Shown here piece by piece: positions 32,554 to 59,440 of a stretch of DNA of 64,000 nt. The translations under genes and the position numbers were made by a program. Position 1 is the stretch's first letter. Every line of letters starts with the position of its first letter. The notes under the pieces were generated by a model that was not told where the DNA came from, did no database searches, and saw nothing but the letters and a program-made list of their open reading frames with translations. The stretch covers positions 102 to 64,101 of the forward strand of contig CAIJFT010000286.1 in NCBI GenBank assembly GCA_903820035.1, given 5' to 3'. This stretch comes from an uncultured Opitutia bacterium (lineage in GTDB: Bacteria; Verrucomicrobiota; Verrucomicrobiia; Opitutales; Opitutaceae).

Positions 32554-32732
32554 GAGGCGGCGAGAGCCGGCGCAAGTACTACGCCCGACGGAGCCCGGCG
32601 GATGCCAAACCGCTGGTCTTAGCCCTGCGCTTGGACGCAGGACCCATGAGAATAGAGAATTTCCCTGCGCTCACGCGCCGGACTGCAAGCCACGGCTTTC
32701 AAAAGGGATCGCACCCACGCCGACGAACCGTT

Positions 32733-34175: not shown

Positions 34176-34249
34176 CGCCGCAAAGTAAGGTGGACTGTTT
34201 CGTCAGGCCAATCCCAAAGCGCGAGCCCCGCTTCGTGCGCCAACCCATC

Positions 34250-37100: not shown

Positions 37101-40100
37101 ATGGAACCCTTCCCGCCCCTCGCCCGACTGCATCGCCTCGCACTCGCCGTCCTCCTCCCGCTCGCCCTGCTGCTCGCTCCCGGCCTTCGCGCCCAAAACG
37201 CGACCGGCACCGTCGAGGGCCGTGTGTTCAACGCCGCCACCGGCAACGCTCTGACGAACGCCCGCGTCACCTTGGAAGGGACCGCGCGCGAGGTGCTCAC
37301 CGACGAGAGCGGCTCCTACCGGCTCACGGGCGTGACCGCCGGCCCGGCCCGCGTGACGGTTTCGTACCTCGGTCTTCAGCGCCAGACCGCCGAGGTCACC
37401 GTAGCCGCCAACGGCAACGTGAAGCGGGAGTTTGAACTGGTGCGCGAAGCTGCCACCGGCGAGACGGTAAAGCTCGACGCCTTCACGGTCGCGGTCGACC
37501 GCGAGATGAGCGCCCAAGCGGTCTCAATGAACGAACAGCGCGCCGCGCCAAACCTCAAAAATGTCGTCGCAATCGACGAGTTTGGCGACCGCGGGGCCGA
37601 AAACATCGGCGAATTCCTGCTCTTTCTCCCCGGCGTTTCGGTCACGACCTCCGGCTCCGAGCCAACCACCGTCGCGATGCGCGGCTTCCCCGGCAACAAC
37701 ACGGGTCTCACCATCGATGGCGCGGAGACCACTGCGACGTTCAACGGAAACAGCCGCGCCCTCGACCTGCGCGAAGTTCCGTTCAACAATGTTTCACGCG
37801 TCGAGATCACCAAGGTCCCCACACCCGATATGCCCGCCTCGGGTCTGGGCGGCTCAATCAATCTGATCACGCGCAACGGCTTCGAATCGCGCAAGCCGAA
37901 GCTCACGCTCAACGCCTACACCATGTTCCACAACCGCAACGGCCCGACCTTCGACGGCGGCCCGCGCAATGCTTCTGGCGTCACCTCGTCGCGTTACACC
38001 GAGCCGTCGTTTGACTTCAGCTACCTGCGGCCCGTGAACTCGAACCTAGCCGTGACCGTCGGCGGCTCGCGCACCTGGCGCGCCAAGCCGATGGAAACCG
38101 GCACCAAGGACACCGACGAGTCTCCGACCTGGGACCAGGTTCGTCTCGTACAAACCACGAGCCAGTGGAACAGTCTCGCCCAGCAGTTCAAGACGCTCCA
38201 AGGCCAGATCGGCGTCGACTGGCGCTGGCGCGAAGCCGACACGTTCTCCGTCAGCGCCCAGTACCGCAGCTACGCGCTGCCGATCACCCGCAGCGTCCTC
38301 GGCTTCGCCTACGGCGCCGGCGCGACCGGCGGCCCGACGTTCACCCAGGGCGCGGCCACCGCGGTCGGCACCGTGACCATGAACGGCAGCGGCGAAAACG
38401 TCGATATCCTCACCCAGACGAAACTCTATAATTTCAAGTATCGCCACCGCGGTGACACCTGGCGCGTCGACTTCGGCAGCTACTTCTCCACCTCGGGCAG
38501 CAACCGCGCCGATGTCGACGCAGGCTTCTTCAACACCACCCCCGCCACCATCTCGAATGTCATTTTGCGCGGCGACGGCATCCCCGCGTCGGGCGGTACG
38601 ATCCCCACGCAATACTCCGCCACCAACGCGGCCGGCGCTCCCGTCGACGTCTACGACGGCGGGAACTACTCGCTCGTCAGTGGCAACACCAACCAGCCCG
38701 ACTGGAATACCCAGCGCTATAACTTCAAGGTCGACCTCGCCCGCGACTTCCGCGGCGCGGTGCCGTTCGCGTTGAAGGTCGGCGGCCTCGTCGACACCCT
38801 GCAGAACGACCAGCGCCGCTACGCCAGGACGTGGACGTTCCGCCCGAACGGCGCGACCGATGCCACCTCGCGCCAGGCGAAGAATTTCGACGTCTTCGAC
38901 AGCGCCTTCAACGACGACGGCCCCACCGTCTTCGGCCGGAAGGTCCGCTGGATCAGCGGGGCGAAGTACTACCAGCTGTACCAAAAGAACCCCTCCTGGT
39001 TCACCTCCGACGACGCCCAAGTCTGGCAAGACTACGTGAACAACTCCCGCGCCCTCGCCGAACAGGTGGCGGCCGCCTATCTCCGGACCGACGTGCGGTT
39101 GTTCCATAACCGCCTCTGGCTCGTGGGCGGCGTCCGCTTCGAGCGCACCCACGACAAGGGCAGCGGCCCGCTGAACGACATCAACGCGCAGTATCAGCGC
39201 AACGCCGACGGCTCTTTCGTCGACGGCAACCCGGCCCTCGCCGGGGTCCAGCGGGTGCAGCTCACGAACGACGCGCTCGCCCTGCGCAAACTCCGCTACG
39301 TGGAGCGCGGCGCCACCTCAGACCAGCACTACGGCGGCCTCTACCCCAGCCTGAACGCCAGCTTTAACCTGACGGAAAACCTGATTGTGCGCGCCGCCTA
39401 TGCCCAGACGCTCGGACGGCCCAACATCAATAACATCATCCCGAGCACCTCGATTTCCGACGCCGCCGCGGCCAACCCCACGATCACCGTCAACAACTCC
39501 GGCCTCAAGCCGTGGAGCGCCCGGAGCTACGATCTCTCGATCGAGAGCTACCAGATCAAGGACGGCTTCGGCTCGATCGGCGTCTTCCAAAAAGAGATCA
39601 AAAACTTCTTCACCTCGGTCACGACCGCCGCCACCCCGGCACTGCTTGAACTCTACGGCCTCGAAAGCGACCAAGCCCTGCTCGGTTACAACGTCACCAC
39701 CCTCGCCAACGGCGGTGACGCCAAAATCCAGGGCGTGGAATTCACCTACCGGCAATCACTCACCTTTCTGCCGCACTGGGCCCGCGGCCTTCAGATCTAC
39801 GCCAATGCCACGAAGCTCAACCTCGGAGGCACCCGCACGTCGGACTTTTCCGGGTACAATCCCAAGTCCGTTTCGGGCGGGGTGAACTTCGTCCGCGGCC
39901 GCGTCGCGCTGAAGTGGACGATCAGTTACAGCGGCGACGTCAACACCGGCGCCGTGGCCGCCAGCGCCACCGTGGCGCCAGGCACGAGCAATTTCCAGGC
40001 GAAGCGCACCCGCATCGGCGTGAACGCGACCTACAGCCTCACCCAGCGTTACTCCCTGTACGCGTCCCTCGTCGACTGGGGCGGTTTCGTGCAGAACCTC

Positions 40101-40196
40101 CAACGCTACTCGGCCACGACGCCGGCCTACGCCCGCCCGACCCGCTGGCAGGAACTCGGTTACTACACGAACGTTGGCGTGCGCGCGACGTACTGA
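37101..40196 (+). CDS. TonB-dependent receptor with carboxypeptidase-regulatory-like N-domain
   Basis: 1031 aa; signal peptide; SAQAVSMNEQRAAPNLKNVVAIDEFGD plug motif; NSGLKPW; C-terminal VRATY. Confidence 0.93.
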   Translation: MEPFPPLARLHRLALAVLLPLALLLAPGLRAQNATGTVEGRVFNAATGNALTNARVTLEGTAREVLTDESGSYRLTGVTAGPARVTVSYLGLQRQTAEVTVAANGNVKREFELVREAATGETVKLDAFTVAVDREMSAQAVSMNEQRAAPNLKNVVAIDEFGDRGAENIGEFLLFLPGVSVTTSGSEPTTVAMRGFPGNNTGLTIDGAETTATFNGNSRALDLREVPFNNVSRVEITKVPTPDMPASGLGGSINLITRNGFESRKPKLTLNAYTMFHNRNGPTFDGGPRNASGVTSSRYTEPSFDFSYLRPVNSNLAVTVGGSRTWRAKPMETGTKDTDESPTWDQVRLVQTTSQWNSLAQQFKTLQGQIGVDWRWREADTFSVSAQYRSYALPITRSVLGFAYGAGATGGPTFTQGAATAVGTVTMNGSGENVDILTQTKLYNFKYRHRGDTWRVDFGSYFSTSGSNRADVDAGFFNTTPATISNVILRGDGIPASGGTIPTQYSATNAAGAPVDVYDGGNYSLVSGNTNQPDWNTQRYNFKVDLARDFRGAVPFALKVGGLVDTLQNDQRRYARTWTFRPNGATDATSRQAKNFDVFDSAFNDDGPTVFGRKVRWISGAKYYQLYQKNPSWFTSDDAQVWQDYVNNSRALAEQVAAAYLRTDVRLFHNRLWLVGGVRFERTHDKGSGPLNDINAQYQRNADGSFVDGNPALAGVQRVQLTNDALALRKLRYVERGATSDQHYGGLYPSLNASFNLTENLIVRAAYAQTLGRPNINNIIPSTSISDAAAANPTITVNNSGLKPWSARSYDLSIESYQIKDGFGSIGVFQKEIKNFFTSVTTAATPALLELYGLESDQALLGYNVTTLANGGDAKIQGVEFTYRQSLTFLPHWARGLQIYANATKLNLGGTRTSDFSGYNPKSVSGGVNFVRGRVALKWTISYSGDVNTGAVAASATVAPGTSNFQAKRTRIGVNATYSLTQRYSLYASLVDWGGFVQNLQRYSATTPAYARPTRWQELGYYTNVGVRATY

Positions 40197-40481
40197 GTCG
40201 CGCCGGTGCGATCCGCCCCCCCTCGGGTCGTTGCGGTGCGACCGCCACTTCAATCCAGCGCGATGGGACGTCGGGCCCCGCCCCACTCAGGTGTTTAGGC
40301 TCGCCGGTTCCAGCCTGCCCCTGCACCGAGGCCCGGCGCTGAAGCGGTTCCGCAATCTCTGTCGCCTCGTTTGAGCCGGAGGCAAAAACGTGGGCCCGCC
40401 AGAGCACACCTTGATCGCTGCGCTCCAACGCGGATACGCTAAACCTGAAACGGTGCAGCCCGGAAAACTGCCCTACCCGCT

Positions 40482-41294
40482 TCAGGCAAACGTCCGCCGC
40501 AAATACTCTAGGCTCCGGGTCGCGATGGCCTCGGGGCCTTCTTCAAAGGTAAAAACCTCGACCGACACCGTGCCGTTGTAGCCGGTCTCGCGCAACGCCG
40601 CGGCGATGGGCTTGAAGTCGACGTCACCAAAACCCGGCCCCTTGAGATTCTTGTCGTTGGCGTGCACATACGCGAACTCCCCGCGGCTCTCGCGCAGAAT
40701 CTGCGCCACCGGTTTCGCCTCGTGGCTCATCGCGCGCACATCGAGGATTACCTTGAAGTTCGGCGAATCGAGCCCGCGGGTGAAGCGGATGGCATCCGCC
40801 GCGGTGTTGATAAAATCCGTGTCCTCGAGCGGCAGTGGTTCGAAGCAGATCGTCACGCCGCGTTGCTCGGCCAACTTGACCGCCGGTCGGAATACCTCGG
40901 CCGCCCAGGTCCAGGCCTGTTCGAGGGTCACGCCCGGCAACAGGCTCCGCTGCTTCGGCGATCCGACGATGATGCTCTTGCCGCCCAGGTCGGCGCAGAA
41001 GTCGGCGAGGTCGCAAAAATACTGAGCCGTCCGCGCGCGCGTCGCGGCGTCGGGTGACGTCACGTACATCCCCTCGGCCTGCACCAGTACCCAGTGGATC
41101 CCGGAAATCGCGATGCCCGCCCGCGCCGCGGACTCGCGGATGCGGACACGTTCGGCGGGGGGGATGTCGGTCACGTACTTCGCGAGCGTGAACGGGGCGA
41201 TTTCCACCGCATCGTAGCCGATCCGGGCGCAGTAGGAAAAGACGTCGTCGATTTTCCAGTCCTTGAAAATCTCGTTGCAGATGCCGAATTGCAT
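40482..41294 (-). CDS. Sugar phosphate isomerase/epimerase (xylose-isomerase-like TIM barrel; ketohexose 3-epimerase-like), cytoplasmic
   Basis: ATG 41294; metal-ligand pattern FEPL, ILDV, VHAND, SVEVF. Confidence 0.88.
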   Translation of the reverse strand: MQFGICNEIFKDWKIDDVFSYCARIGYDAVEIAPFTLAKYVTDIPPAERVRIRESAARAGIAISGIHWVLVQAEGMYVTSPDAATRARTAQYFCDLADFCADLGGKSIIVGSPKQRSLLPGVTLEQAWTWAAEVFRPAVKLAEQRGVTICFEPLPLEDTDFINTAADAIRFTRGLDSPNFKVILDVRAMSHEAKPVAQILRESRGEFAYVHANDKNLKGPGFGDVDFKPIAAALRETGYNGTVSVEVFTFEEGPEAIATRSLEYLRRTFA

Positions 41295-41352
41295 GGAATC
41301 AGAGAAGGGAGGATTGCGCGCCGGCCGCAATCAAACAACCGGCGGAGTTTGG

Positions 41353-41590
41353 CCCACGGAACACACGGAGAACACGGAAGCGGAAGCCAACCTTCGAAAG
41401 CCGGTGGCTACGAGCGCTCGCGGGCGGCGAATGTGGCCATTCCGATCGATGCAAAGGTTCACGCGGAGCAGCGGAGGTCGCGGAGATTGATCCTGCCCTC
41501 CCTTCCTGCCCCCCCCCGCTTTTCACCTCACCCGCCGCCCTGAACAAGGGAGCCTCGGCGCACTTCCGTGTCTTCCGTGTGTTCTGTGGG
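41353..41590. mobile_element. 238-bp MITE/REPIN-like element with 28-bp terminal inverted repeats
   Basis: 41353-41380 cccacggaacacacggagaacacggaag vs reverse complement of 41563-41590 cccacagaacacacggaagacacggaag: 25/28 identical; no internal ORF. Mobility is inferred only. Confidence 0.55.
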
Positions 41591-41614
41591 CTACTGGATT
41601 GCCGGGCCCGGCAC

Positions 41615-43150
41615 TCAGTGCGCGAAGCCCTTTTCCTCTTCCGGCAGCGGCTGTCCCTTCGTCTCGGGCGCGAACGGCAGCACCATCAACCCGAGCAGAA
41701 AAATCCCGCACATCGTCACACCGGCGTAGCGCATCGGTTCGGGCTGGTCTTTGTAGACTTCGCTGGTGAGCAAGCCAAGGACCGCCGGGCCCGAGGCGGC
41801 GGCAAAGCGGCCGACGTTGTAGCAAAAGGAAATGCCCGTGCTGCGCAGGCGCGTCGGAAACAACTCCGGAAAATACACCGCGTAGCCGCCGAACAGCGAG
41901 AGCTGGCAAAAGCCCATGATCGGAATCATCCAGAACACTTGGCTCCGGTCCTTGAAAAACAGGAATACCATCGCCGTGCTCAGCATCGCCGCCACGAAAC
42001 TCAACGCGAACGTCGGGCGGCGGCCAAGGCGTTGCGAGAGGTAGCTGAAACTCGCGATGCCCGGGAAAGCGCCGACATTGATCATGATCGAGGTCACGCC
42101 GGCCCAGAAGGTCACGGCGCCCGGCACCCGCGCGGGATCCATACCCTCGGCCAGAAAGGCCTTGGTGAACACCGAGCGCATGAGATCGATCGTGAAGAAC
42201 CCGATGCCCCACAGTCCGATGATACCCGAAAGCGCCAACAGCAACCCGACGACGGCGCGGCGGCGCCAGCGCGTGTCGCCTTGACCGCCGAACACACTCC
42301 ACAGCCCGGCCGCGAGCGCGCCCGCCGCCAAGACGATGCCGATCTTTAGTTTCGGCAAACCGGCCCCGCCGAAGAAGGCCACGGCGACAATCGCCACGAT
42401 GAAGCCCGCCGCGAGGAACGCCGGCCTCTGCCATTTATCGTTGCCGAAGAGTTCGGCGTACGAGCCGAGGCTCGCGCCCTTCTTCGCCGGCGCCGCCGCG
42501 GCCGCCTTCCAGCGGTCGGGCTCCTGCAGCCGCGAACGAATCAACAGGGCCAAGAACGCCGGCAGCGCACCAATCACAAACATCCAGCGCCACGCCGAGC
42601 CCACCGCGCCCGATTCCTCGAGCCGGCCGAGCCCCATGCTGATGAGCGCCGCCGACACATTGCCCACGACAGAAAGCGCCTGCAGGAGGCCGAGCGCGTG
42701 CGGCCGGGCGCGGTCCGGCATGACTTCCGCCACAAGCGAGACGCCGACCGCAAACTCACCGCCGACGCCCAGGCCCGTGAGGAAACGAAAGAACGCGAAA
42801 TCCCAAAACCCGGAGGACAGCGCGCTCAGGCCGGTGCAAACGGAGTAGATGAGAATCGTCCACATCATCGTCTTTGCCCGACCGATCCGATCGCCCAGCA
42901 CCCCGAACGTCAGGCCGCCCGTGGCCCAGCCGAGGAGAAAAATGGCGGTCGCGTAACCGCTGTAGAGCGCAACGTCGTCGCCGGGCTTGAGCAACGCCTT
43001 CATCGCCGGCACGCGGGCCAGGTTGAAGAGCTGCTGGTCCATCGTGTCGAAGAGCCAGCCGAGGGCGGCCACCACGAGAACGAACCAGTGGTAACGGTTC
43101 AATTCAGTCCACCACGCGCCGGTGACGCGGGTCGGTTGGGAGGATGTCAT
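41615..43150 (-). CDS. MFS transporter (metabolite:H+ symporter-like)
   Basis: LGWLFDTMD, FGVLGDRIGR motif A, FRFLTGLGVGGE, ELFPTRLRSTG. Confidence 0.92.
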   Translation of the reverse strand: MTSSQPTRVTGAWWTELNRYHWFVLVVAALGWLFDTMDQQLFNLARVPAMKALLKPGDDVALYSGYATAIFLLGWATGGLTFGVLGDRIGRAKTMMWTILIYSVCTGLSALSSGFWDFAFFRFLTGLGVGGEFAVGVSLVAEVMPDRARPHALGLLQALSVVGNVSAALISMGLGRLEESGAVGSAWRWMFVIGALPAFLALLIRSRLQEPDRWKAAAAAPAKKGASLGSYAELFGNDKWQRPAFLAAGFIVAIVAVAFFGGAGLPKLKIGIVLAAGALAAGLWSVFGGQGDTRWRRRAVVGLLLALSGIIGLWGIGFFTIDLMRSVFTKAFLAEGMDPARVPGAVTFWAGVTSIMINVGAFPGIASFSYLSQRLGRRPTFALSFVAAMLSTAMVFLFFKDRSQVFWMIPIMGFCQLSLFGGYAVYFPELFPTRLRSTGISFCYNVGRFAAASGPAVLGLLTSEVYKDQPEPMRYAGVTMCGIFLLGLMVLPFAPETKGQPLPEEEKGFAH

Positions 43151-43210
43151 GTGGGAAGGGGATAGTCAGTTTCAGGTGGAGCCCGATGAGATCTTCGGGC
43201 TTGCCAGCCG

Positions 43211-43290
43211 GTTGAAAGTCATCCGTTGAAAGTTGAAAGGCACGGACGGCAGAAGCCCCGGCTTTAAACGTTCAACCATCAACGTTCAAC
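43211..43290. repeat. Inverted pair of 7-mer tandem arrays (STRR-like hairpin)
   Basis: gttgaaa-gtcatcc-gttgaaa-gttgaaa ... tttaaac-gttcaac-catcaac-gttcaac. Confidence 0.75.
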
Positions 43291-43313
43291 CGCCCGGCCC
43301 GACCGGGCCGGGC

Positions 43314-44228
43314 TTACAGCAGACCCTGATAGGCGAGCCAGAGCGCCCGGAAATATTTCATCAGCCGCACCGGATCTTTGCTCTCGGGAATTTCGGCGAA
43401 CGTGTAGCCCTTGAACCCGCTCGCGCTCAGACTCGTCAGCAGTTTCCGGAAAGGATACTCCTCGAGGTAGAGATCCCGCAGGTGGACCGTGAAAATCTTG
43501 CCCTTGAGGGCGGCGAAATTGCGATCCCAGCCGTCGCCCTGCAGGTCGGTCTGGTTCGAATTCCAGCACGCACCCACGTTCGGGTGGTTGGCGAAGTCGA
43601 GAATCTGCTTCGCGTTGCTCACGAGCTGCGTGCCGTTGCCGTGTACCTCCATCCGAATCTGCTGACCGTGGCTTGCGCCAAACTCGCCCAGTTCCCGCAA
43701 CGAACGGCCGATTTGCTCGAGGGTTTTCTCCACGGGCACGCCGTTCGGCAGGCCGTTCGGGCGCACCTTTACGCCCGTTGACCCGACGTCCTGCGCAAGC
43801 ACGATGTACTCCTTCGTCAGCTCGATGTCCTGCCGGAGCTTTGCCTGATCGGTCGTATGATAGTCGAACGCGCTGCCCATGCTCGCTAGTTCCACCGGGG
43901 AATCGGCAAAACGTTTCTTCACCTCGGCCCGCTCGGCCTTGCTGAGCGTGACCTCGACGCCGTGCTTGTGCGAGGTGCGCAGCTCGACGCCGTCAAACTT
44001 CGCCTCCGCACAATTCTTGATGATCGTCGCGATGTCCCAATCCATTGCGATATTGTACGTCACCGTGCCAAGCTTCATCGGCGACTTGCCGGCGAAGCTC
44101 GGTTGCGGCGCGGACGGCGCCTTGGCCTTGTCTTTTTTGTCCGCGGCGAAAGCCGCGGTGGATAGGGCGCCAAGCGCGCCGAGGCTGACAGACGCGGTCC
44201 TGAGGAACTGACGACGGGATGAGTTCAT
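43314..44228 (-). CDS. Tat-exported sugar phosphate isomerase/epimerase family TIM-barrel protein
   Basis: ATG 44228; SRRQFLR twin-arginine; GVELR, MEVHG, VHLRD, FAEI. Confidence 0.85.
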   Translation of the reverse strand: MNSSRRQFLRTASVSLGALGALSTAAFAADKKDKAKAPSAPQPSFAGKSPMKLGTVTYNIAMDWDIATIIKNCAEAKFDGVELRTSHKHGVEVTLSKAERAEVKKRFADSPVELASMGSAFDYHTTDQAKLRQDIELTKEYIVLAQDVGSTGVKVRPNGLPNGVPVEKTLEQIGRSLRELGEFGASHGQQIRMEVHGNGTQLVSNAKQILDFANHPNVGACWNSNQTDLQGDGWDRNFAALKGKIFTVHLRDLYLEEYPFRKLLTSLSASGFKGYTFAEIPESKDPVRLMKYFRALWLAYQGLL

Positions 44229-44482
44229 ACGGGGTAAAGCCAACAACGCCGGCGCCGTGCCGGTGAAAGGAAAACCTCACGCGCCGCGGCGAGGCTGTCG
44301 AGGGTGGAAAGCGAAAGTCTCGCTCCCCTGCACGTCCTCCGACCCCGGCGGCGCCAACGGTGTCCCGGTCAGCCAGCGCCCCGGCTGGCGCGCACCAGCA
44401 CAAAGCGGAGAAACGGGCCGTCCGGGGCGAATCCGGTCGCACTTGAAACGGCGGCGCCCCTGCCCTCGTCTCTCCTGACGCC

Positions 44483-46999
44483 ATGGCCCTCCCCGCCCCC
44501 TGTTGGATTCTCGCCGGTCTGTTCCTCGCTTCCGCCGCGCGCCTGTTGGCCGCCGAACCGCTCCTCGACTGGTCCGATTGGGAGAAATACCGCGGGACCG
44601 TGCAGCACCCGAGCGGCGCCTTCAAGGCCGCCGACTTTGAACGGGCCAAGGAAAACATCGTGCGCTACCCGTGGGCGAAGTCCTACGCCGCCGCCATCGA
44701 GCGCAATGCCAAGGCGGCCGCGGCCAAGATCACCCCGGGCTACCTCGCGGCCATGATCCCCGAGACGACGCCCGGCGACAGTAAGTTTACCCCTTGCCCG
44801 GCCTGCCGCGATCAGGGCCAACCCGTCCACCCGCACGGCCTCTGGTCGTGGCGCGAGAGCCGGCCGGAGGAGCTCACCTGCGACATGTGCCGCACGGTTT
44901 TCCCCAACGCGAAGTATCCCGAGTCAGTCGTGCTGCAGACCACTTGGGGTAAACCACAACAGCTGACCTACTGCGGCGGCGAGCCCTTCGTGATCTTTGG
45001 CTACAAGACGGGGCGGCCGAGTTTTTCCGCCAACCTCCGCGCGCGCAAAGTCGGACACCTCTCGTCGCTCGCACGCACCCTCGGGGAAGCCTGGGCGCTC
45101 ACGGGCAACGTCGAGTACGCCCGCGCCGCGCGCGCGATTCTGCTGCGGTTCGCGGCCGTGTATCCGAATTATTTGGTACACGTCGGCTACGGCGAGTTCG
45201 CCGACATGGATCCGCGCGTCGCCGCCCAGGCGATCCAAAGCCTCCCCGCACCGGAACTCTGCCCGCCGCCGAACCGGCCCGACCGCAAACTGCACACGGG
45301 CTACTGGACCGCGGGCCGCGCGAGCGGCGTCGGTCAGGAATCCGGCTTCGTCCGCCACGTGGTCGAAGCGTACGACTTCACCTGCACGGCCCGCGAGGCC
45401 GGCGGTCGGCCGGTCTACTCCGACGCCGACCGCCGGCTCATCGAACGCGACTTGCTGCTCGAAAGCACCCTCCTCCTCGTCTGTGACAAGGGCATCAACA
45501 ACAAGTCCGTCGGCAACCGCACCGCCGCCGCTCTCGTCGGTCTCGCCGTCGGCCATCCCGGGCTCGTCCGCTTCGGCTGGGAAGGCTTCGAGCAGACCGT
45601 CGCCGACTGGTTTCTGCCGGACGGCACGACATCGGAATCACCCGCCTACGCGACAATGACCTTGGGCAACACGTGGGACATGCCGCAGGCTTTGCGCGGT
45701 TATTCGGATCCGGAGAGTTACCGCGACGTCGCGGGCCAACGCCGCACGGCCGTCGACCTGTATCATGGCACCGCGTACGGCAAGGTATGGGAGAACATGT
45801 ACCGCGGACTGCAGGGCAACCTCCTCTATCCGGCGTATGCCGACTCCTACCGCACGTCCGGCCTCGGCAGCAATTTTGTCGAGCTCATGGTCGCGAACTA
45901 CCCGGAACGCCCCGAGTACCTCGCCCTGTTGAAGGAACAAATCGGCCCGGAGCTCGACCATGGCTACGCGCCGCTCGCCCTTTATTACCGCGAGCCCGGT
46001 CTGGAAAAAAAGCCCGCGCCGACGATCACACTGCCCGATTGGGTGTCGGCTGATCTGCGCATCGGCCACCTCCGCTCCGGTCGCGACGGCCGGGAAAGTT
46101 TACTGCTGCTCAGTGCGAGCCATTGGGGCGGGCATCATCATCAGGACAGCCTGAACCTCACGTACTGGAAGCAGGGCGCCGAGGTGCTGTCGGACCTGGG
46201 CTACCTCTGGGATCACCCGCGGAAGCACGAGACTTTGCGCACGCTGGCACACAACACCGTGCTCCTCGACGAACAGGAGCAGCTCACGAAAGAACGCGGC
46301 GGGGACGTGCAATTCTTCCGGGCCACGCCGCACGTCAAGGTGATGCAGGCGTCGTCGCGGGCCTACGCCGCGGCGAAGACCTATCGCCGCACCTCGGCCG
46401 TGGTCGATCATGGCGACGGCAAGACCTACGTCGTGGATTTCTTCCGCGTACAGGGCGGACGCCAACAGGACTACGTTTTCCACGCGTCGGCGCCGACGGT
46501 CGCGGTGACCGAAGCGACGACCACGCCGGCGGCGGCGAAGCTCTATGATTTCACCAACGTCCGCGCCATCACCAGCCACGCCGCCTGGCGCGCCACCTGG
46601 CGCAACAGCGACCAGACCTGCGTCGCGTGGAATTTGCCGCAATCCGGCGAAACGGCGTTCGTTGGCGACGGCTGGGGCCAGCGCGATTGGAAAAATTCCG
46701 ACGTCGGCGCGACCCTTCCGTACCTCGTACGCCGCACCACCGGCGACGGGGAGAAAGTATTTGTCACGGTCTTCGCGAGCCACCCCGGCGACACGGCCTA
46801 CGTGCGCGGCGTGCGCGCAGTCGACGCCGCGGGGATCATTGCGATCGAGACGGTCGACGGGACGGATTTCGTACTCTCGGCGGCGGACACGGGTAACTTG
46901 CGGGCGCCGGGCGCACCTACGCTCACCGGGCGTTTCGGCGTGACCTCCGTACAGCAGGGCAAGCTCGCGTGGAGCTTCGTCGAACCGGAAAAACCCTGA
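44483..46999 (+). CDS. Heparinase II/III-like polysaccharide lyase, secreted
   Basis: Signal peptide; helical N-half; DGTTSESPAY; C-terminal GGHHHQDSLNL...LSDLGY...LAHNTVLLD pattern. Substrate unknown. Confidence 0.8.
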   Translation: MALPAPCWILAGLFLASAARLLAAEPLLDWSDWEKYRGTVQHPSGAFKAADFERAKENIVRYPWAKSYAAAIERNAKAAAAKITPGYLAAMIPETTPGDSKFTPCPACRDQGQPVHPHGLWSWRESRPEELTCDMCRTVFPNAKYPESVVLQTTWGKPQQLTYCGGEPFVIFGYKTGRPSFSANLRARKVGHLSSLARTLGEAWALTGNVEYARAARAILLRFAAVYPNYLVHVGYGEFADMDPRVAAQAIQSLPAPELCPPPNRPDRKLHTGYWTAGRASGVGQESGFVRHVVEAYDFTCTAREAGGRPVYSDADRRLIERDLLLESTLLLVCDKGINNKSVGNRTAAALVGLAVGHPGLVRFGWEGFEQTVADWFLPDGTTSESPAYATMTLGNTWDMPQALRGYSDPESYRDVAGQRRTAVDLYHGTAYGKVWENMYRGLQGNLLYPAYADSYRTSGLGSNFVELMVANYPERPEYLALLKEQIGPELDHGYAPLALYYREPGLEKKPAPTITLPDWVSADLRIGHLRSGRDGRESLLLLSASHWGGHHHQDSLNLTYWKQGAEVLSDLGYLWDHPRKHETLRTLAHNTVLLDEQEQLTKERGGDVQFFRATPHVKVMQASSRAYAAAKTYRRTSAVVDHGDGKTYVVDFFRVQGGRQQDYVFHASAPTVAVTEATTTPAAAKLYDFTNVRAITSHAAWRATWRNSDQTCVAWNLPQSGETAFVGDGWGQRDWKNSDVGATLPYLVRRTTGDGEKVFVTVFASHPGDTAYVRGVRAVDAAGIIAIETVDGTDFVLSAADTGNLRAPGAPTLTGRFGVTSVQQGKLAWSFVEPEKP

Positions 47000-47014
47000 T
47001 GGTCGGCCGTGTCT

Positions 47015-47047
47015 GGTTTTAGCCCGATGTCCCATCGGGCTAAAACC
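47015..47047. terminator. Perfect 15-bp hairpin between convergent genes
   Basis: ggttttagcccgatg-tcc-catcgggctaaaacc. Confidence 0.75.
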
Positions 47048-47094
47048 GCACCCCTTACCGAACAAAGGCCGATGGGGGCAGCGGGCCCCACGGC

Positions 47095-47430
47095 TCACGA
47101 GCCGGGCTTGGGTGCCGTCGACTTCTCCGCGCCGTAGGTCTTCACCAGGTAATCGACGATCGGAGCAATCGCCTCGTCGGGCACGGGCGCAGCGAAGGTC
47201 TTCTGCATCTTTGTGACCGTTGCCTGCCAGTACGCGCGCGCCGACGTCGGCTGCATTTTGAAATAATCCACCGAGTGGCAGGTGTAACACATTCCCGTCG
47301 CCAGCGCGTAGCCGGGCAACGGCGATTCGATCAGCCGCGCCGTCTCGGCCGGCAACTGGATCTCCAAGGCCGTGACGCGCACGACGGCGCCGAGGGCAGC
47401 AACCAACGCGATAAATTCCCCCTTCCTCAT
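47095..47430 (-). CDS. sorB: SorB-like c-type cytochrome subunit of sulfite dehydrogenase
   Basis: ATG 47430 overlapping the sorA stop; signal peptide; IQLPAET...LPGYALATGMCYTCHSVDY (CxxCH)...WQATVTKMQKTFAAP. Confidence 0.85.
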   Translation of the reverse strand: MRKGEFIALVAALGAVVRVTALEIQLPAETARLIESPLPGYALATGMCYTCHSVDYFKMQPTSARAYWQATVTKMQKTFAAPVPDEAIAPIVDYLVKTYGAEKSTAPKPGS

Positions 47431-48653
47431 ACGGCCTCCACGTGGACGGTTTCGACGACGTTGCGGAGATAGCCCGCGGGATTCCACAGCGGCTCGAGCG
47501 GCTGCGATTCGCCGATGCGGTTCAGCGCGCGCGCCATCAACGTGTGCGACCCGCGCTGCGTCGGCGTGAAGGCGATCTTCCACTCGCGAAACGAATATCG
47601 CCCGAGGTCCTCGCCGAGATTCGCCGCGCGCCAGGTACGCCCCCCGTCGCTGGAGAACGCGACCTCCCGGATGCCCTGCCCGCTATCGAAGGCGATGCCG
47701 CGCACGACGGTCTCACGGCCGACCGTGACGGTCGCCTGGTCCGTCAGGCTCGTGATGAACGACCGGATCGTGAACCGCTGGATCGGCTCGGTCTTCTTCG
47801 CCGTCGTGCCGGGCGCCACGCTCCGGCCGGGTGTGTCGGGCGTGCGGTAGGCCGCGCTCATCCAGAAACCGGTGAAGACGCTGTCGAGCACCTCGATGTC
47901 GTCGACATGCTTGACCCAATACGTGCCGTAGTAGCCCGGCACCACCAGCCGCAGCGGGTAGCCGTTCAGCATCGGCAGGTCCTCGCCGTTCATCGCCCAC
48001 GCGAGCATCACTTCGCCGTCGAGCGCGTGGTCGACATCGAGCGCTTTCACGAAGTCCGGCGTGCCCGGCAACGGCGGCTTGTCGAGGCCGTTGAACGCCA
48101 CCTGCCGCGCCTCCTTGGCGAGGCCGGCCTTTTCGAGAATCGTCTTCACGGCCACGCCGGTCCACCGCGCATTGCCCATCGCGCCGTGACCGAGTTGTCC
48201 GCCATTCACGCGCGGCTTGAAGAAACCACGACTGTTGCCCGAGCACTGGTTGACCGCCACGACCTCGACGGGCGGGGCGAGTTTCTTGATGTCGTCGAGC
48301 GAGAGCGTGAGCGGTGTCGCGACCTTCCCGTGGATCTTGAGTCGGAACGCGCCCGGATCAACCGACGTCGGGATGTCGGACAAATGGTACCGCACGAAGA
48401 ACGCATCGTTCGGCGTGAGCAGGCCCTCGTTGAAAACGGCGAACGGCGTCTCGAGCTGCGGCGGCCGCGCGGTCATGCGGATGAGTGGACGCTTCTGCGG
48501 GTACGCCACGAGGTCGCGTTCGCCATTCTCAAACGGCATCAGCACGGTATCCGCGGCGCCGAGGAGGCGCGAGAGCGGACCCCCGAGGGCGGCACCGGTG
48601 GCGAGCATCGCGCTAGTTTGGAGAAAGCGACGGCGGTCAGGGGCGGACTTCAT
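47427..48653 (-). CDS. sorA: SorA-like molybdopterin sulfite dehydrogenase, Tat signal
   Basis: DRRRFLQ; FFVRYH; Mo-ligand QCSGNSR; GAMGNARWTGV; LNGYPLRLVVPGYYGTYWVK. Confidence 0.92.
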   Translation of the reverse strand: MKSAPDRRRFLQTSAMLATGAALGGPLSRLLGAADTVLMPFENGERDLVAYPQKRPLIRMTARPPQLETPFAVFNEGLLTPNDAFFVRYHLSDIPTSVDPGAFRLKIHGKVATPLTLSLDDIKKLAPPVEVVAVNQCSGNSRGFFKPRVNGGQLGHGAMGNARWTGVAVKTILEKAGLAKEARQVAFNGLDKPPLPGTPDFVKALDVDHALDGEVMLAWAMNGEDLPMLNGYPLRLVVPGYYGTYWVKHVDDIEVLDSVFTGFWMSAAYRTPDTPGRSVAPGTTAKKTEPIQRFTIRSFITSLTDQATVTVGRETVVRGIAFDSGQGIREVAFSSDGGRTWRAANLGEDLGRYSFREWKIAFTPTQRGSHTLMARALNRIGESQPLEPLWNPAGYLRNVVETVHVEAV

Positions 48654-48736
48654 CGACGGCCAACGCTGCCGACGATAGCGCGGAGCGCAACGATGTTTGA
48701 GTGGTGGGCGGGACCGTGGTCCGCGTCCGTCCGGTT

Positions 48737-48862
48737 GTAGGCCAGCGCGCTTGCGCGCGCCCCACGGAGCGGCGCTTTCCGAAGCGGCGCTTCACGTAAA
48801 GCCGGCGGTTGGGAAACCGCCGCTCCGACCGGCAATCCGCGCTCGCGAGCGAGCTGACCTAC
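48737..48862. repeat. Nested REP doublets (outer GTAG pair enclosing an inner inverted pair)
   Basis: Outer 48737-48760 vs reverse complement of 48839-48862: 20/24. Inner 48765-48791 vs reverse complement of 48801-48827: 21/27. Confidence 0.85.
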
Positions 48863-48944
48863 GCCACGCCGCGCGGGGCGGTTTCGATTGCCAACGTCCG
48901 CGCTGTAACCACAGGGTTACCTCGCCCCTTCTTATCTTATCTCC

Positions 48945-50321
48945 ATGCAATCGCCCTCCCCTGCCACCCGTCGCACGTTCCTGAAAACCCTCGGCGCCGC
49001 TGGCGTCGCCGCCCCGTTCATCGCCCGCAGCCTCCGCGCCGCGGCACCAAGCGGCGTCCTGCGCCACGTCAGCTTCGGCTCGGCCGGCATGGCCTGGGCC
49101 GACCTGCAGGCGATCACCAGCAATCCATTTGTGAAGCTCGTCGCGGTCGCCGACGTCGATCTCAACCGCACGAAGCAGGTGAAGGAGGCGTTCCCCGATG
49201 TGAAGGTCTATCAGGACTGGCGCCAGTTGCTCGACAAGGAGAAGAACAACTTCGACTCCGCCAACGTTTCCACCCCGGACCACATGCACGCCGCCATTGC
49301 GATGTCCGCGATGCAACTCGGCAAGCACGTCTACTGTCAGAAGCCGCTCGCACACGACATCTACGAGACGCGCATGCTCACCAACTACGCCCGCGAGAAG
49401 AAGCTCGTGACGCAGATGGGCATCCAGATTCATTCTTACAAGGTGTACCGTCAGGCCGTCGCCCTCGTGCAGAGCGGCGTCATCGGCAAGGTCAAGGAAG
49501 TCCACACCTGGAGTAACAAGAAATGGGGCGACCTCGGCGCACCCGTGGTCAAATACGACCCGGTACCGTCGAATCTCGACTGGGATATTTGGCTCGGCGG
49601 CGCGGCGGCGCGGCCGTTTGTCGGCGGCGGTTATTATCACCCGAGCAACTGGCGCAAGCGGCTCGACTTCGGCACCGGCACGTTCGGTGACATGGGCTGC
49701 CACATTTTTGATCCGGTGTTCGAGGCGCTGGCATTGACGTCGCCACTGTCCCTCCGCTCCGAGGGTCCGGCACCGGACCAGTGGAATTGGGCGGTCAACG
49801 CGAAGATTCACTACGTCTTCCCGGGCACGAAATTCACCGAGGACAAAACGGTGCCGATCACCTGGTACGACGGCGACGAGCGTCCGCCGGCGGAGATCCG
49901 CGCGCTGATCGAAACCCCGGCCGCCGAGGCCGCGGCCAAGTCGGGCAAACGCAAAGGCGGCGAAGCCGACAATCAGGGTTCGATCATCATCGGCACGCAG
50001 GGCGTGTTGCACATCCCGCACGTCGCGGCGCCGAAGCTGTTCCCGATCGCCAAGTTTAAGGACTACAAGCTCCCCGAGTGCGAACAGGGGCACCATTGGA
50101 CCGAGTGGGCCGAGGCGTGCATGAAGGGTGGCAAGCCCGGCGCGAACTTCGATTACTCGGGCCCGCTCACCGAAGCGGTGCTGCTCGGCAGCGTCGCGGT
50201 GCGCTTCCCGAAGACGAAGCTCGAGTGGAACGGCGCGAAGCTGCAATTCGACAACGAACGCGGCGCGAACCAGTTCCTCCGCCGCACTTACCGCAAGGGT
50301 TGGGAAGTCGCAGGCTTGTAA
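48945..50321 (+). CDS. Tat-exported Gfo/Idh/MocA oxidoreductase
   Basis: TRRTFLK; NVSTPDHMHA, KHVYCQKPLA, GTFGDMGCH. Confidence 0.93.
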   Translation: MQSPSPATRRTFLKTLGAAGVAAPFIARSLRAAAPSGVLRHVSFGSAGMAWADLQAITSNPFVKLVAVADVDLNRTKQVKEAFPDVKVYQDWRQLLDKEKNNFDSANVSTPDHMHAAIAMSAMQLGKHVYCQKPLAHDIYETRMLTNYAREKKLVTQMGIQIHSYKVYRQAVALVQSGVIGKVKEVHTWSNKKWGDLGAPVVKYDPVPSNLDWDIWLGGAAARPFVGGGYYHPSNWRKRLDFGTGTFGDMGCHIFDPVFEALALTSPLSLRSEGPAPDQWNWAVNAKIHYVFPGTKFTEDKTVPITWYDGDERPPAEIRALIETPAAEAAAKSGKRKGGEADNQGSIIIGTQGVLHIPHVAAPKLFPIAKFKDYKLPECEQGHHWTEWAEACMKGGKPGANFDYSGPLTEAVLLGSVAVRFPKTKLEWNGAKLQFDNERGANQFLRRTYRKGWEVAGL

Positions 50322-50439
50322 GCCCGGAGCTTCAGCGTCGGGCGCGGGTTCAGTCCCGGCCCGACAGCGTCGGCGCGATTCAGCATCGCGTCTTTCTGCT
50401 CGCCGCACCTTCCCTGCCCGCGGCACGCTTCGCCTGAGC

Positions 50440-51657
50440 ATGAAGAACGGACTCCACCCCGGCCAGACCGGAGATCTGCTTTGGGTCGTCGATCCAACGA
50501 TGACAATCACCCTCGGCGGACTCCCGGCCGCGACCGTGTTTTCAACGCCGTTCATGATCATGCTCATGGAACGGGCGGCCCGGGAGGCCCTGCGGCCGTT
50601 TCTCGAGGACAGCGAGGAATCGGTCGGCGTCGAAGTTCAAGTGGAGCACCTGGGGCCCGCCGCCCTCGGCGACACCGTCCGGGGCTTAGCCCGCGTCACC
50701 GCCGTGGACGGACGCCGCGTGCATTTCGCCGTGCAGGCCTTCGCCGGTGACCGCGAAATTGGCCGCGGCACCCATCGTCGGGCCGTCGTGAATCTCAATC
50801 GGATCGTCGAAAACGTGGAAAAACTCTGTGGCGATCAGGGTCGGGCTCTCGCGCTTGAACCCAATCCTGGCAACCTGCCGCCCCTCGAAACGCTGCGCGT
50901 GGCGACCAAGGACCGGGTGACCACGGTGACGTTTCGCCGGCCGGATGCACTCAACGCGGTCAACGTACGGATGACCGGTGAATGGGAACAGGTCATGAGT
51001 TGGCTGGCCGGTCATCCCGAGGAGGTCCGCGTGGCCATCCTGACCGGTGCCGGTAGCGCCTTTTGCGCTGGCGACGACGTGAAGGAACTGGCGTCGCTTT
51101 CGCTCGACGAGGCGCGCCGCCTCAGCCTGCGGCAGGCGAACCTTTGGCTGGCGGCCGAACGGTTGCCGCAGCCCGTCATCGCGGCAGTCAACGGCCCGGC
51201 CCTTGGCGCCGGCTGCGTGGCCGCCTACTCCTGCGATTTCCGCGTCGCCGCGCATGCCGCAACCTTCGGGATGCCCGAAATCAAGCTCGGCTGGCCGCCG
51301 GGTTACGGCGTGGCGCAACTGACCGCGATCGTGGGTAAGGCCCGCGCGTTGGAACTCTGCCTGCTTGGCGAATCCATCCCGGCGACGAAGGCGCTGGAGT
51401 GGGGTCTCGTGCACGAGGTTGTGCCCGGCGCGATGCTGCTCACCCGCGCGCAACACCTTGCCGACCGCCTGCTCGCGTTGCCCGCCGAAGCCCTGCGTGC
51501 CACCAAACGGCTCGTGCATGCGGACGAAGGTCAACTACCCAAGATCACGCATCGCGCCGACACCGAGGCGTACATCCGTTGCCTCGCCCTACCCGATGCG
51601 CAGGAAGGGATCGCCGCTTTCGCCGCGAAACGAAAACCACAGTTCCGCGGAAAGTAG
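50440..51657 (+). CDS. FlK-type hotdog thioesterase fused to crotonase (enoyl-CoA hydratase/isomerase) domain
   Basis: ATG 50440; VFSTPFMIMLME and VEHLGP (FlK Thr/Glu/His pattern); FCAGDD, NGPALGAGC, FGMPEIKLG, DAQEGIAAFAAKRKPQF. Confidence 0.85.
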   Translation: MKNGLHPGQTGDLLWVVDPTMTITLGGLPAATVFSTPFMIMLMERAAREALRPFLEDSEESVGVEVQVEHLGPAALGDTVRGLARVTAVDGRRVHFAVQAFAGDREIGRGTHRRAVVNLNRIVENVEKLCGDQGRALALEPNPGNLPPLETLRVATKDRVTTVTFRRPDALNAVNVRMTGEWEQVMSWLAGHPEEVRVAILTGAGSAFCAGDDVKELASLSLDEARRLSLRQANLWLAAERLPQPVIAAVNGPALGAGCVAAYSCDFRVAAHAATFGMPEIKLGWPPGYGVAQLTAIVGKARALELCLLGESIPATKALEWGLVHEVVPGAMLLTRAQHLADRLLALPAEALRATKRLVHADEGQLPKITHRADTEAYIRCLALPDAQEGIAAFAAKRKPQFRGK

Positions 51658-54105: not shown

Positions 54106-54387
54106 GGTGATGCGGGCTGGGATGGGATGGGGGAAGTCTGGACGAATCCGGAAACCGTGCATGACGGACGACATCGGGAATCGATGCAATGCTGCGCGTG
54201 GGCGGCGCGACCGTTGGCCGAGGATTCGTCCCGCGTTTGCCGGTTCACCCGACGAGGCAGACGGGAGTCGCTTGCAGAACGCCCGGTCGACGGCAGGCCG
54301 ACCGGACAATTTCACCCCGCGGCCCCGAATCGCGGAACCCACCCGATTCGGCGTGAGTCCGACGGGCTCGTGCTGCAACCTCCGCCC

Positions 54388-55029
54388 ATGCTTCCCGGTT
54401 TACGCCTCTGGTTGGCGTTTTGCCTACTTTGGACCTGCGCGTCCGGGGGCGACGCCGTCGAACCACGTTTCTCCCAGATCCTCGGCAAGGCTGACCGTGA
54501 GGCGGCGGGAATCGTGCGGCTGAACTCCGATGAAGTCGCCGTGATCGACGCCCTCGTCCGCCGCGACACCGTGGCGCGCCTCAACGCTAACGCCGCTTCA
54601 AAGCTGGCCGAGCAGTTCTCCCAACGCCTGACCCCAGGCGAACGCCAAACCTCCGGCATCGGCAAACTCAGCCCCACGGAACTCACGCAACTCGACGGTC
54701 TGGTGGACCGCCATCAAAACGCCCGCCTCGCCCGTACGCTCCTTGCGCCGCCCGCGTACCTTTCCCGCAGCGGTCCGGTGCGAACCACTGAAACGAAACG
54801 GGAACGGGAAATCCACGGCACCTTCTCCCTCAGCTACGGGATCGGCAGCGGCGGCTACAGCGAGAAGTCGGGCTCCACCACCCTCACCCTCGAGGATCCC
54901 GCGAAGGGTTACTCCGTGACGCTCGGCTACAGTGAGACGCACACAAAGGGCGGGCCGGTTTACCGCGACCCGAGATACGATTACTCCCGCGGGATGCCGC
55001 TGGACCTCGCCGCCACCCCGCGTCCTTGA
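54388..55029 (+). CDS. Hypothetical secreted protein with an internal ~35-aa duplication
   Basis: ATG 54388; signal peptide; FSQILGKADREAAGIVRLNSDEVAVIDALVRR vs FSQRLTPGERQTSGIGKLSPTELTQLDGLVDR. Confidence 0.7.
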   Translation: MLPGLRLWLAFCLLWTCASGGDAVEPRFSQILGKADREAAGIVRLNSDEVAVIDALVRRDTVARLNANAASKLAEQFSQRLTPGERQTSGIGKLSPTELTQLDGLVDRHQNARLARTLLAPPAYLSRSGPVRTTETKREREIHGTFSLSYGIGSGGYSEKSGSTTLTLEDPAKGYSVTLGYSETHTKGGPVYRDPRYDYSRGMPLDLAATPRP

Positions 55030-55277
55030 TCGACCGTGGTTATCGGATGGCGCAGGCTGGAGACCAACCCACGTGCCAGCCTCCCGACAGGAGTAATGCC
55101 GTTGAAGGTTTCAGGTAGAGCGTTGAAAGCCCCGGTCCAGGGGCGCAGTTGGCCCAAGTTCCAACCGAGGCGCCCATTTCCCCGAGCCGGCCACGTGGGG
55201 CAGAAAGAGAACCCGCCCCCGCGTCAGTCGGTTTGCCTGCCACCGCAACCAAGCTCCTTAAAACCGCCTGAGCCGGC

Positions 55278-59407: not shown

Positions 59408-59440
59408 GGGCAGGTGGGTTGAGGTTGGAGAACGAAAGAC

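Follow-up and report, generated by a model that had tools for sequence, protein, structure and literature searches.

The stretch of DNA analysed here (the window, 64,000 nucleotides) carries, within 13 kb, genes for a sulfite dehydrogenase in the midst of genes for sugar breakdown, which raises the question of whether these neighbours supply the sulfite. The host is an Opitutus-type verrucomicrobium, a freshwater-type bacterium. In a preliminary description, the 13 kb had been read as one coherent locus for the periplasmic, non-hydrolytic breakdown of a sulfur-bearing sugar coupled to sulfite oxidation. According to the present analysis, the segment is probably a mosaic of a sugar neighbourhood, a sorAB operon that arrived once and has since been inherited, and an unrelated TonB-dependent receptor (TBDR), with the sulfite likely coming from the unlinked sulfoquinovose (SQ) monooxygenase SmoC.

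Gene content and layout

All eight genes listed beforehand are present between positions 37101 and 50321, intact and without internal stops, and the families proposed for the TBDR, the TIM barrels, the MFS transporter, the lyase, SorAB and the Gfo/Idh/MocA protein (Gfo) were confirmed by Pfam and NCBIfam. As had been cautioned, the genes lie on mixed strands; they form five transcription units. Signal peptides were judged from sequence motifs only, by which all eight proteins except TIM1 and the MFS transporter are exported. An independent ENA metagenome contig has the same gene order TIM2-lyase-sorB-sorA-Gfo-thioesterase/hydratase. Thus, the part from TIM2 to Gfo, in which the order of five of the eight genes is repeated in an independent assembly, is not an assembly artefact.

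The sulfite dehydrogenase

The genes sorB (47095..47430, minus strand; NCBIfam), coding for a monoheme cytochrome c, and sorA (47427..48653, minus strand; NCBIfam), coding for a twin-arginine molybdenum sulfite dehydrogenase, are adjacent, with a 4-base overlap between sorB and the stop of sorA, and convergent with the lyase gene. Both products score above the curated cut-offs (SorA, 677 vs 600 bits for NF052245; SorB, 99 vs 93 bits for NF052246), SorB has a CxxCH motif at 48-52, and sorA is single copy in the genome. In SorA, we take C137 to be the Mo-ligand cysteine and the Arg, His, Arg and Tyr aligned below to be active-site residues. R88, H90, C137, R142 and Y269 align with R55, H57, C104, R109 and Y236 of Starkeya SorA (2blf), and the active-site residues are invariant among the copies of the genus. 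The Starkeya novella enzyme is matched over its full length (E 5e-160); the two-gene layout is common to both systems, and the Mo-ligand Cys, the active-site Arg/His/Tyr and the monoheme SorB are kept. However, sorAB has sugar genes as neighbours here, and its host is a verrucomicrobial heterotroph. Judged by its sequence, the pair is a true SorAB sulfite dehydrogenase. By analogy with its family, it would oxidise periplasmic sulfite to sulfate and pass the electrons to cytochrome c.

The sugar genes

TIM1, a xylose-isomerase-like barrel of 270 aa without signal peptide (40482..41294, minus strand; Pfam), has E152/D185/H211/E246 as in keto-sugar epimerases of the D-tagatose 3-epimerase type and is near-core in the genus (32/36). 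The MFS transporter, of the anion/H+ symporter type (41615..43150, minus strand, 511 aa; NCBIfam), is nearest to aromatic acid/sialate families, with scores below the cut-offs, and its gene usually lies directly upstream of TIM1 in relatives. TIM2 (43314..44228, minus strand, 304 aa; Pfam) is a second xylose-isomerase-like barrel, with a twin-arginine motif and the invariant residues E194, H196, N223, H249 and E279. No close solved relative of TIM2 was found (best 15-19% identity), and the AL1/BT1 structures are absent among its best 50 fold matches. The 3-ketoglycoside lyases AL1/BT1 use the metal ligands His, Asp and His together with a catalytic Glu; TIM2 has E/N/H/E where AL1 has H/D/H/E.

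The secreted heparinase II/III-like lyase (44483..46999, plus strand, 838 aa; Hepar_II_III_C) has PL17 enzymes as its top ten fold matches (TM 0.52-0.62; 16% identity to PL17 oligoalginate lyases). The candidate catalytic residues Y389, H552 and Y574 are invariant in 46 homologues. Like the PL17 lyases (9irq, Alg17c, 7bjt) and other heparinase II/III-fold lyases, it combines an alpha/alpha barrel with a beta-sandwich and carries Tyr/His/Tyr motifs. Unlike the PL17 lyases, it has Asn-Lys in place of Asn-His, a position deduced from motifs, and a four-cysteine insert near the N-terminus. It thus shares the PL17 fold and the Tyr/Tyr pair but neither the Asn-His carboxylate site nor the family-level score, falling far below the oligoalginate lyase model (24.5 vs 1400 bits).

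The Gfo protein (48945..50321, plus strand, 458 aa; NCBIfam) has a twin-arginine motif, and its nearest structures are the glycoside 3-dehydrogenase entries 8tdf/8tdh (E 1e-52). The Gln, Arg, Asp and His of the AL3 site are kept as Q161, R237, D249 and H253, which are invariant in the genus; the Trp of the site is replaced by Leu240, and its Tyr was not located. The score lies below the BT2158 equivalog cut-off NF058561 (295 vs 750 bits). The protein is thus a candidate AL3/BT2158-like glycoside 3-dehydrogenase, and the non-hydrolytic (non-Koshland) reading given to it beforehand is supported. The characterised clusters AL1-4, BT2156-2159 and P2B11 (Nasseri et al., 10.1101/2024.03.25.586180) likewise have a Tat Gfo with TIM-barrel partners, and P2B11, like the block described here, is without DUF1080. 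In contrast to these clusters, the Gfo and TIM genes here are not in one operon and there is no second Gfo in the block. One non-Koshland glycosidase operon of Gfo and TIM2 was rejected because 4.7 kb separate the two genes, which are also on different strands.

It had been cautioned that families so numerous might be neighbours by chance. The genome has 72 Gfo, 43 TIM-barrel, about 96 TonB-receptor and about 100 sulfatase genes, and 3.3% of its genes have a Gfo neighbour. Among random 14-kb windows of this genome, a Gfo gene occurs in 15%, a TBDR gene in 18%, Gfo with TIM in 4% and all three in 0.6%. The sugar block exceeds chance and recurs in relatives; the TBDR does not travel with it. Without sorAB, the block recurs as TIM1-MFS-lyase-Gfo; in G034, G025 and G063 (G numbers denote genomes compared), the lyase gene immediately precedes Gfo, and a Tat TIM gene is divergent from Gfo in G029, G065, G032, G016, G079 and G072. 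Thus, Gfo, the two TIM barrels, the MFS transporter and the PL17-like lyase are a recurring, reshuffled sugar block, which is also found without sorAB. The block would most likely degrade acidic oligosaccharides or glycosides: the lyase may cut uronate glycans by beta-elimination, Gfo may oxidise glycosides at C3, TIM2 may eliminate or isomerise the keto sugar, and the product could be imported by the MFS transporter and epimerised by TIM1; the families are established, the substrates and the order of steps inferred. Its lyase belongs to a clade that is uncharacterised, and its pairs of Gfo and TIM are candidates for non-hydrolytic glycoside cleavage.

The TonB receptor and the one-unit reading

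The TBDR (37101..40196, plus strand, 1031 aa; Pfam, NCBIfam) has orthologues that mostly lie beside sialidase/BNR, NanA-like, mutarotase and GntR-type genes, and TIM1 was found in none of 24 such loci. It is a bystander, a third unrelated unit that is not part of the sugar block. A polysaccharide utilisation locus spanning the 13 kb was rejected because the TBDR orthologues are unlinked to the block in these 24 loci.

If the 13 kb nevertheless formed one unit, the receptor would import a sulfated or sulfonated glycan from which periplasmic enzymes release sulfite for SorAB, for instance by oxidation beside a C-sulfonate followed by elimination. The export of most of the proteins would fit, some members of the fold family of the lyase act on sulfated glycans, sulfatases come next downstream of the Horticoccus lyase orthologue, and a sulfatase is convergent to Gfo in several relatives. 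Such a unit is nevertheless very unlikely. The TBDR orthologues never accompany the block, the block occurs without sorAB, sulfatase neighbours are expected because there are about 100 sulfatases per genome, and the nearest relatives of the lyase are PL17 alginate lyases, whose substrate is unsulfated. On chemical grounds, C3 oxidation should not activate a C6 sulfonate for elimination. Moreover, heparin, chondroitin, ulvan and fucoidan, which had been proposed as inducers, carry sulfate esters and yield sulfate instead of sulfite; sulfated glycans are therefore no substrate source for SorAB, which cannot use sulfate. The lack of a sulfatase or DUF1080 gene, named beforehand as a caveat, weighs little, since about 100 sulfatase and 29 DUF1080 genes are present in the genome.

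Linkage of sorAB and Gfo

In the genus, sorA is present in 21-22 of 60 genomes and the Gfo orthologue, which is near-core, in 48; sorA was not found in 30 of these 48. The sorAB genes are divergent from the Gfo orthologue in 6 (probably 8) of the 22 sorA-bearing genomes and not beside it in 14. No Gfo, TIM or lyase match was found within 5 kb of about 70 sorA loci outside the genus. The eight Gfo-linked sorA copies form one branch (support 72/84 in one tree; SH-aLRT 93 in a second tree, where the branch is nested among unlinked copies), which indicates that the link arose once. On the other hand, the divergent arrangement has been kept across lineages in which SorA is just 75-83% identical and most other neighbours have changed, and TIM1, MFS and lyase genes lie within 10 kb of sorAB in G069. 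Elsewhere, sorA adjoins SnoaL/PhoPQ, MarR-RND, sulfatase, YeiH, RNase R and other genes. The linkage of sorAB to Gfo is thus real in several relatives, but it has one origin and was not found at the sorA loci outside the genus. Together with the separate TBDR orthologues, this speaks against one coherent locus; a self-contained sorAB operon would have entered the sugar neighbourhood once, in one sub-lineage, and then been inherited. As read, the locus is ordinary, with known families and a sulfite dehydrogenase inherited beside sugar genes.

A further point against the mosaic is that, in G036, G001 and G067, sorAB and two TIM genes face the same way, with gaps of 70 and 20 bases, and may share a transcript. 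The 291-bp divergent intergenic region between sorA and Gfo (48654..48944) holds the palindrome GTAAC-N6-GTTAC (48905..48920), a candidate operator about 25 bases before the Gfo start. It occurs before Gfo in 9 of 29 relatives, seven of which have no adjacent sorAB. Four Gfo genes linked to sorAB are not preceded by it, nor is any unlinked sorA. The candidate operator goes with the Gfo gene and not with sorA.

Two further adjacencies of sorAB to other Gfo paralogues arose independently (G026/G071; G133), that is, 2 of about 16 other contexts (P ~0.1-0.25). Since sorAB hence adjoins a Tat Gfo in three separate lineages, the divergent pair could be explained without a sulfur sugar if NADH bound to the periplasmic Gfo were re-oxidised by SorB or SorAB; Nasseri et al. 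(10.1101/2024.03.25.586180) mention cytochromes as possible re-oxidants of such enzymes in vivo. This is hardly credible: the sulfite-binding set of SorA is complete, SorB stays permanently bound to SorA as its subunit (PMC4760952) and is a one-electron carrier, and most Gfo-bearing genomes are without sorAB.

The source of the sulfite

No known C-S cleaving family was found among the window genes. The window was also considered as a sulfo-SMO/SDO SQ cluster, which was rejected because it contains neither a C-S cleaving oxygenase nor an SQase. A SmoC orthologue is encoded on another contig, C322. It matches 7oh2 along its length with E 1.4e-132 and keeps all five substrate residues W206/R236/H238/Y341/H343. 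The genome thus resembles the Agrobacterium sulfo-SMO system (PMC8795539) in having SmoC with the five SQ-recognition residues, but no window gene is a sulfo-SMO gene and smoC is unlinked. Neither GH31 nor clear orthologues of smoA and smoB were found in this genome. Since searches for TauD, Xsc, SoxB and cysteine dioxygenase were negative as well, SmoC is the sole sulfite-releasing catabolic enzyme found, and it, not the neighbours, would be the most likely sulfite source of SorAB. Against SmoC as the source, sorAB was not found near any of 20 smoC loci, and sorA shows no preference for genomes with smoC. Desulfonation would then likely be cytoplasmic and not periplasmic as proposed. In G097, which belongs to another Opitutaceae genus, yeiH-sorAB adjoins GH31, smoA-like, smoC and smoB-like genes, a full sulfo-SMO cluster, and the SQ cluster of Alteromonas macleodii (PMC12780224) contains a two-component sulfite dehydrogenase, a precedent for coupling SQ sulfolysis to sulfite oxidation. 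Given the SmoC orthologue and the G097 cluster, the proposed route from a sulfosugar via sulfite to SorAB is plausible for the genome as a whole, but hypothetical for the locus itself. No paper placing a SmoC-type pathway in Verrucomicrobiota was found in the literature searched.

As smoC is present and no GH31 was found, another SQ-releasing enzyme would be needed. The Tat Gfo and TIM2 could form a periplasmic non-Koshland sulfoquinovosidase, neither GH31 nor GH188, with unlinked SmoC desulfonating the SQ and sorAB, placed beside Gfo by shared induction from the common intergenic region, oxidising the sulfite. The P2B11 system of one Gfo and two TIM barrels cleaves sulfoquinovosides, albeit slowly (10.1101/2024.03.25.586180). 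Among paralogues, the one nearest to the window Gfo (40%) belongs to the smoC operon of this genome and is also near smoC in G003 and G070; a 67% relative of this paralogue comes after yeiH-sorAB in G133. In G018 and G077, about 6 kb separate the window-Gfo orthologue from smoC. However, the SmoC-type operon, present in 37 of 60 genus genomes, already has its own conserved Gfo, with an MFS gene, in most of 30 loci. The window Gfo is near-core and also present in genomes without smoC or sorA, the link to sorAB is of single origin, and smoC was not found in the linked genomes G001 and G036 (91% and 98% completeness). GH188 NAD-dependent sulfoquinovosidases such as SqgA (PMC10755693) share the Gfo fold and C3 oxidation, but the window Gfo has Asp249-x3-His253, as in AL3, instead of Glu-x3-His and no match to 8qc2/8qc3 at E 0.001; its assignment to GH188 was rejected. 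This split pathway is therefore doubtful; if true, it would provide a third way of SQ release, and the freshwater bacteria that degrade this abundant sulfur compound would gain a new group.

It is similarly improbable that sorAB serves as a general sink for sulfite from the environment, from leaks of assimilatory reduction or from other sulfonates, with no special tie to SQ or to the neighbours. The presence of sorA tracks genome size (p 0.0002, kin not being independent) and not smoC (12/21 vs 25/39, p 0.78), smoC was not found in 9 of the 21 sorA genomes, and the sorA contexts are very varied. Against this stand the lack of other candidates than SmoC and the position of sorAB beside the sulfo-SMO cluster in G097. 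The general sink and the preferred mosaic agree in that the adjacency in the window is incidental.

Gene content and background of the locus

Family profile searches confirmed that the eight genes named in the preliminary description between window positions 37101 and 50321 are all present, intact and in the families as named. Moreover, they lie on mixed strands, as had been cautioned, and form five units: a TonB-dependent receptor (TBDR, +); TIM2-MFS-TIM1 (-), in which TIM1 is a cytoplasmic xylose-isomerase-like barrel and TIM2 a twin-arginine barrel; the heparinase II/III-like lyase (+); sorA-sorB (-); and the twin-arginine Gfo/Idh/MocA gene (Gfo), followed by a thioesterase/enoyl-CoA hydratase fusion gene (+). 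One independent metagenome contig shows the same gene order between TIM2 and the fusion gene. The warning that such families are numerous in these genomes also holds: the source genome has 72 Gfo, 43 TIM-barrel, about 100 sulfatase, 29 DUF1080 and 5 heparinase II/III-like genes as well as about 96 TonB receptors. SorA is present in a single copy. A Gfo neighbour is found for 3.3% of random genes, and Gfo, TIM and TBDR occur together in 0.6% of 14-kb windows of this genome. Promoter and terminator scans gave counts at chance level. The close relatives carry the labels Opitutus or Opitutaceae.

In our judgement, the locus probably comprises three parts: a sugar module that would handle sugar acids or glycosides, an inherited neighbouring sorAB pair whose sulfite would come mainly from an unlinked sulfoquinovose (SQ) monooxygenase, SmoC, and a TonB receptor that would be unrelated to both. 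The components belong to already known kinds. The earlier interpretation is partly supported: the genes and families stood, whereas a sulfite source within the locus and the membership of the TBDR did not.

The fusion gene (50431-51657, +) encodes an FlK-type thioesterase and an enoyl-CoA hydratase/isomerase and starts about 110 bases 3' of Gfo; none was seen beside Gfo in the relatives examined. Both flanks are of housekeeping type. To the right (51838-62540) are a spermidine-synthase-like membrane protein, pilC, pilB, pilT and rho; to the left (29711-36757) are an epimerase fusion, photolyase, glycogen synthase and RNase R, the last being the only flank gene compared with a family library.

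The sugar genes and the TonB receptor

The nearest structures to Gfo are the glycoside 3-dehydrogenases 8tdf and 8tdh (E 1e-52), the next matches being at 1e-13. The Gln, Arg, Asp and His of the site of AL3, the glycoside 3-dehydrogenase of non-Koshland clusters, are retained and Trp is replaced by Leu, from which we infer an AL3-like action, although Gfo scores under the AL3 family cut-off. Gfo is not a GH188 sulfoquinovosidase. In TIM1, the Glu/Asp/His/Glu residues characteristic of keto-sugar epimerases are present. TIM2 has the same barrel fold with Glu/Asn/His/Glu, and structure comparisons yielded no close or useful solved relative. The lyase fold resembles PL17 oligoalginate lyases (16% identity) with the candidate catalytic Tyr, His and Tyr retained, and the enzyme probably acts on a uronate glycan, with or without sulfate groups. 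It also has a conserved CxxC...CxxC motif (residues 105-136; 44795-44890, +), a possible metal site that is atypical of PL17.

Across the genus, Gfo (48/60) and TIM1 (32/36) are near-core, whereas TIM2, the lyase and the close orthologue of MFS are found in scattered genomes. The sugar genes recur close together in variable order, for instance as TIM1-MFS-lyase-Gfo without sorAB, TIM-TIM-lyase-Gfo, TIM2-MFS-TIM1, TIM2 divergent from the lyase, or another Tat TIM barrel divergent from Gfo. The neighbourhood is real but loose. The TBDR (37101-40196) had been counted as a member of it; however, TIM1 is absent from all 24 loci carrying a TBDR orthologue (69-83% identity). Many of these loci (L290-L313) contain sialidase-like, N-acetylneuraminate-lyase-like, mutarotase or GntR-type genes, and their content suggests that the receptor may import sialic-acid-type sugars. 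That the whole 13 kb acts as one unit is highly improbable.

A palindrome, GTAAC-N6-GTTAC, lies just 5' of the Gfo start (48905-48920). The genome contains 16 exact copies, 15 of them intergenic, and many precede TBDR, Gfo or TIM genes; other spacings are almost lacking, save for five copies with a spacer of 7. These sites are a candidate regulon of one regulator. Among 29 relatives, the palindrome precedes the Gfo orthologue in nine, seven of which have no adjacent sorAB, and it is missing at four sorAB-linked Gfo genes and before every unlinked sorA. The palindrome tracks Gfo rather than sorA.

Identity and history of sorAB

SorA and SorB score above curated cut-offs and retain the Starkeya active-site residues; judged by sequence, they are a true SorAB. 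An exact look-up of the SorA sequence matched no second contig. A recent foreign origin was rejected, GC and GC3 being the same as in the neighbours.

Synteny bore out the expected conservation only in part: the sugar block recurs and the sorAB-Gfo pair occurs in six, probably eight, genomes, but sorA is unlinked in the remaining carriers. Of 60 other genomes in the genus, 21 carry sorA. The gene is transcribed away from the Gfo orthologue in the source genome, G017, G036, G001, G081 and G083, and probably, across contig breaks, in G067 and G019. In the other 14 it adjoins different genes, and in one of these (G069) it lies less than 10 kb from TIM1, MFS and the lyase. For comparison, 11 of 12 other divergent gene pairs were kept and so were 55 of 73 co-directional ones, a housekeeping-biased sample that serves as a rough guide only.

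The linkage history was reconstructed from SorA and Gfo trees; the backbone of the rpoB species tree was unresolved and could not date the linkage. The eight linked SorA copies form one side of a single branch (72/84); once outgroups are added, they form a clade embedded in the unlinked ones (SH-aLRT 93). The simplest reading is therefore that the linkage arose once, with moderate support; in the Gfo tree the linked copies group weakly (support 49). Presence of sorA was compared with that of TIM2 (p 0.003; 0.11 in large genomes only) and of the lyase (p 0.15), and neither link was accepted, since genome size and kinship confound both.

About 70 sorA loci from outside the genus were also examined, and no counterpart of these sugar genes lies within 5 kb of any of them. 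One of eight Opitutaceae of other genera, G133, carries yeiH-sorAB within a Gfo/TIM/DUF1080 cluster. Counting G026/G071 as well, sorAB touches Gfo paralogues twice more among about 16 contexts, which is slightly above expectation but within the reach of chance (P about 0.1-0.25). That sorAB is a general sulfite sink without any tie to SQ is unlikely, and this explanation agrees with the favoured one in that the adjacency to the sugar genes is incidental. An electron-sink role for sorAB is extremely unlikely.

Three genomes have YeiH-type putative sulfate exporters next to sorAB, and one has a DASS anion symporter there (L039:8192-9421, L324:7990-9213, L329:7922-9061, L126:4830-6092). In G017, an NrfA-like cytochrome c nitrite reductase and a partner cytochrome are convergent to sorAB (L031:11061-13054). 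In G028, sorA is in two frames (L041:9380-10314), reflecting a frameshift or an assembly error.

A probable sulfite source outside the locus

Sulfatases yield sulfate, and sulfite arises only from C-sulfonates and reduced sulfur. Release of sulfite by the locus enzymes, as had been proposed, gains no support from the window genes, none of which falls in a known C-S cleaving family. Searches of the source genome (98% complete) detected no TauD, Xsc, SoxB, cysteine dioxygenase or GH31, and no clear smoA or smoB orthologue. Another of its contigs, C322, encodes a full-length SmoC orthologue (E 1.4e-132 to 7oh2) that retains the five SQ-recognition residues named in PMC8795539. This unlinked SmoC is the likely sulfite source for SorAB. 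Within the genus, smoC (37/60 genomes) and sorA show no preferential co-occurrence (p 0.78) and were never together in the loci examined.

In another Opitutaceae genus, yeiH-sorB-sorA abuts a complete-looking cluster for the SmoC-dependent SQ pathway, sulfo-SMO (G097, L329:1-10699), comprising a sodium symporter, a YihQ-type GH31, glycerol-3-phosphate dehydrogenase, a flavin-reductase-like protein, SmoC and an aldo-keto reductase. By its gene content, this is such a pathway with its own sulfite dehydrogenase; an Alteromonas SQ cluster with a sulfite dehydrogenase has already been described (PMC12780224).

Alternatively, the SQ pathway could be split, with the Gfo and TIM2 of the window freeing SQ in the periplasm. 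Three observations favour this explanation: smoC is present in the source genome, where no GH31 was found; a related Gfo/TIM system cleaves sulfoquinovosides slowly (10.1101/2024.03.25.586180); and in three genomes the paralogue closest to the window Gfo (40%) lies within or close to the smoC operon. The explanation nevertheless appears rather doubtful.

The smoC operon is a more promising lead than the locus itself. On C322, smoC is the first gene of a genus-conserved smoC-Gfo-MFS operon; in the genus loci the same Gfo (70-82% identity) almost always comes next, and an aldo-keto reductase is often found upstream of smoC. With its Glu-x3-His and an Arg upstream of it, this Gfo recalls GH188, although the match is distant (E 5e-21 to 8qc3); it is a candidate for a new SQase or a 6-oxoglucose reductase. 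The surrounding region (C322:21163-27587; L330:7164-13588, minus strand) contains a sulfatase, smoC, the cytoplasmic Gfo, MFS and a Tat Gfo, all in the same direction.
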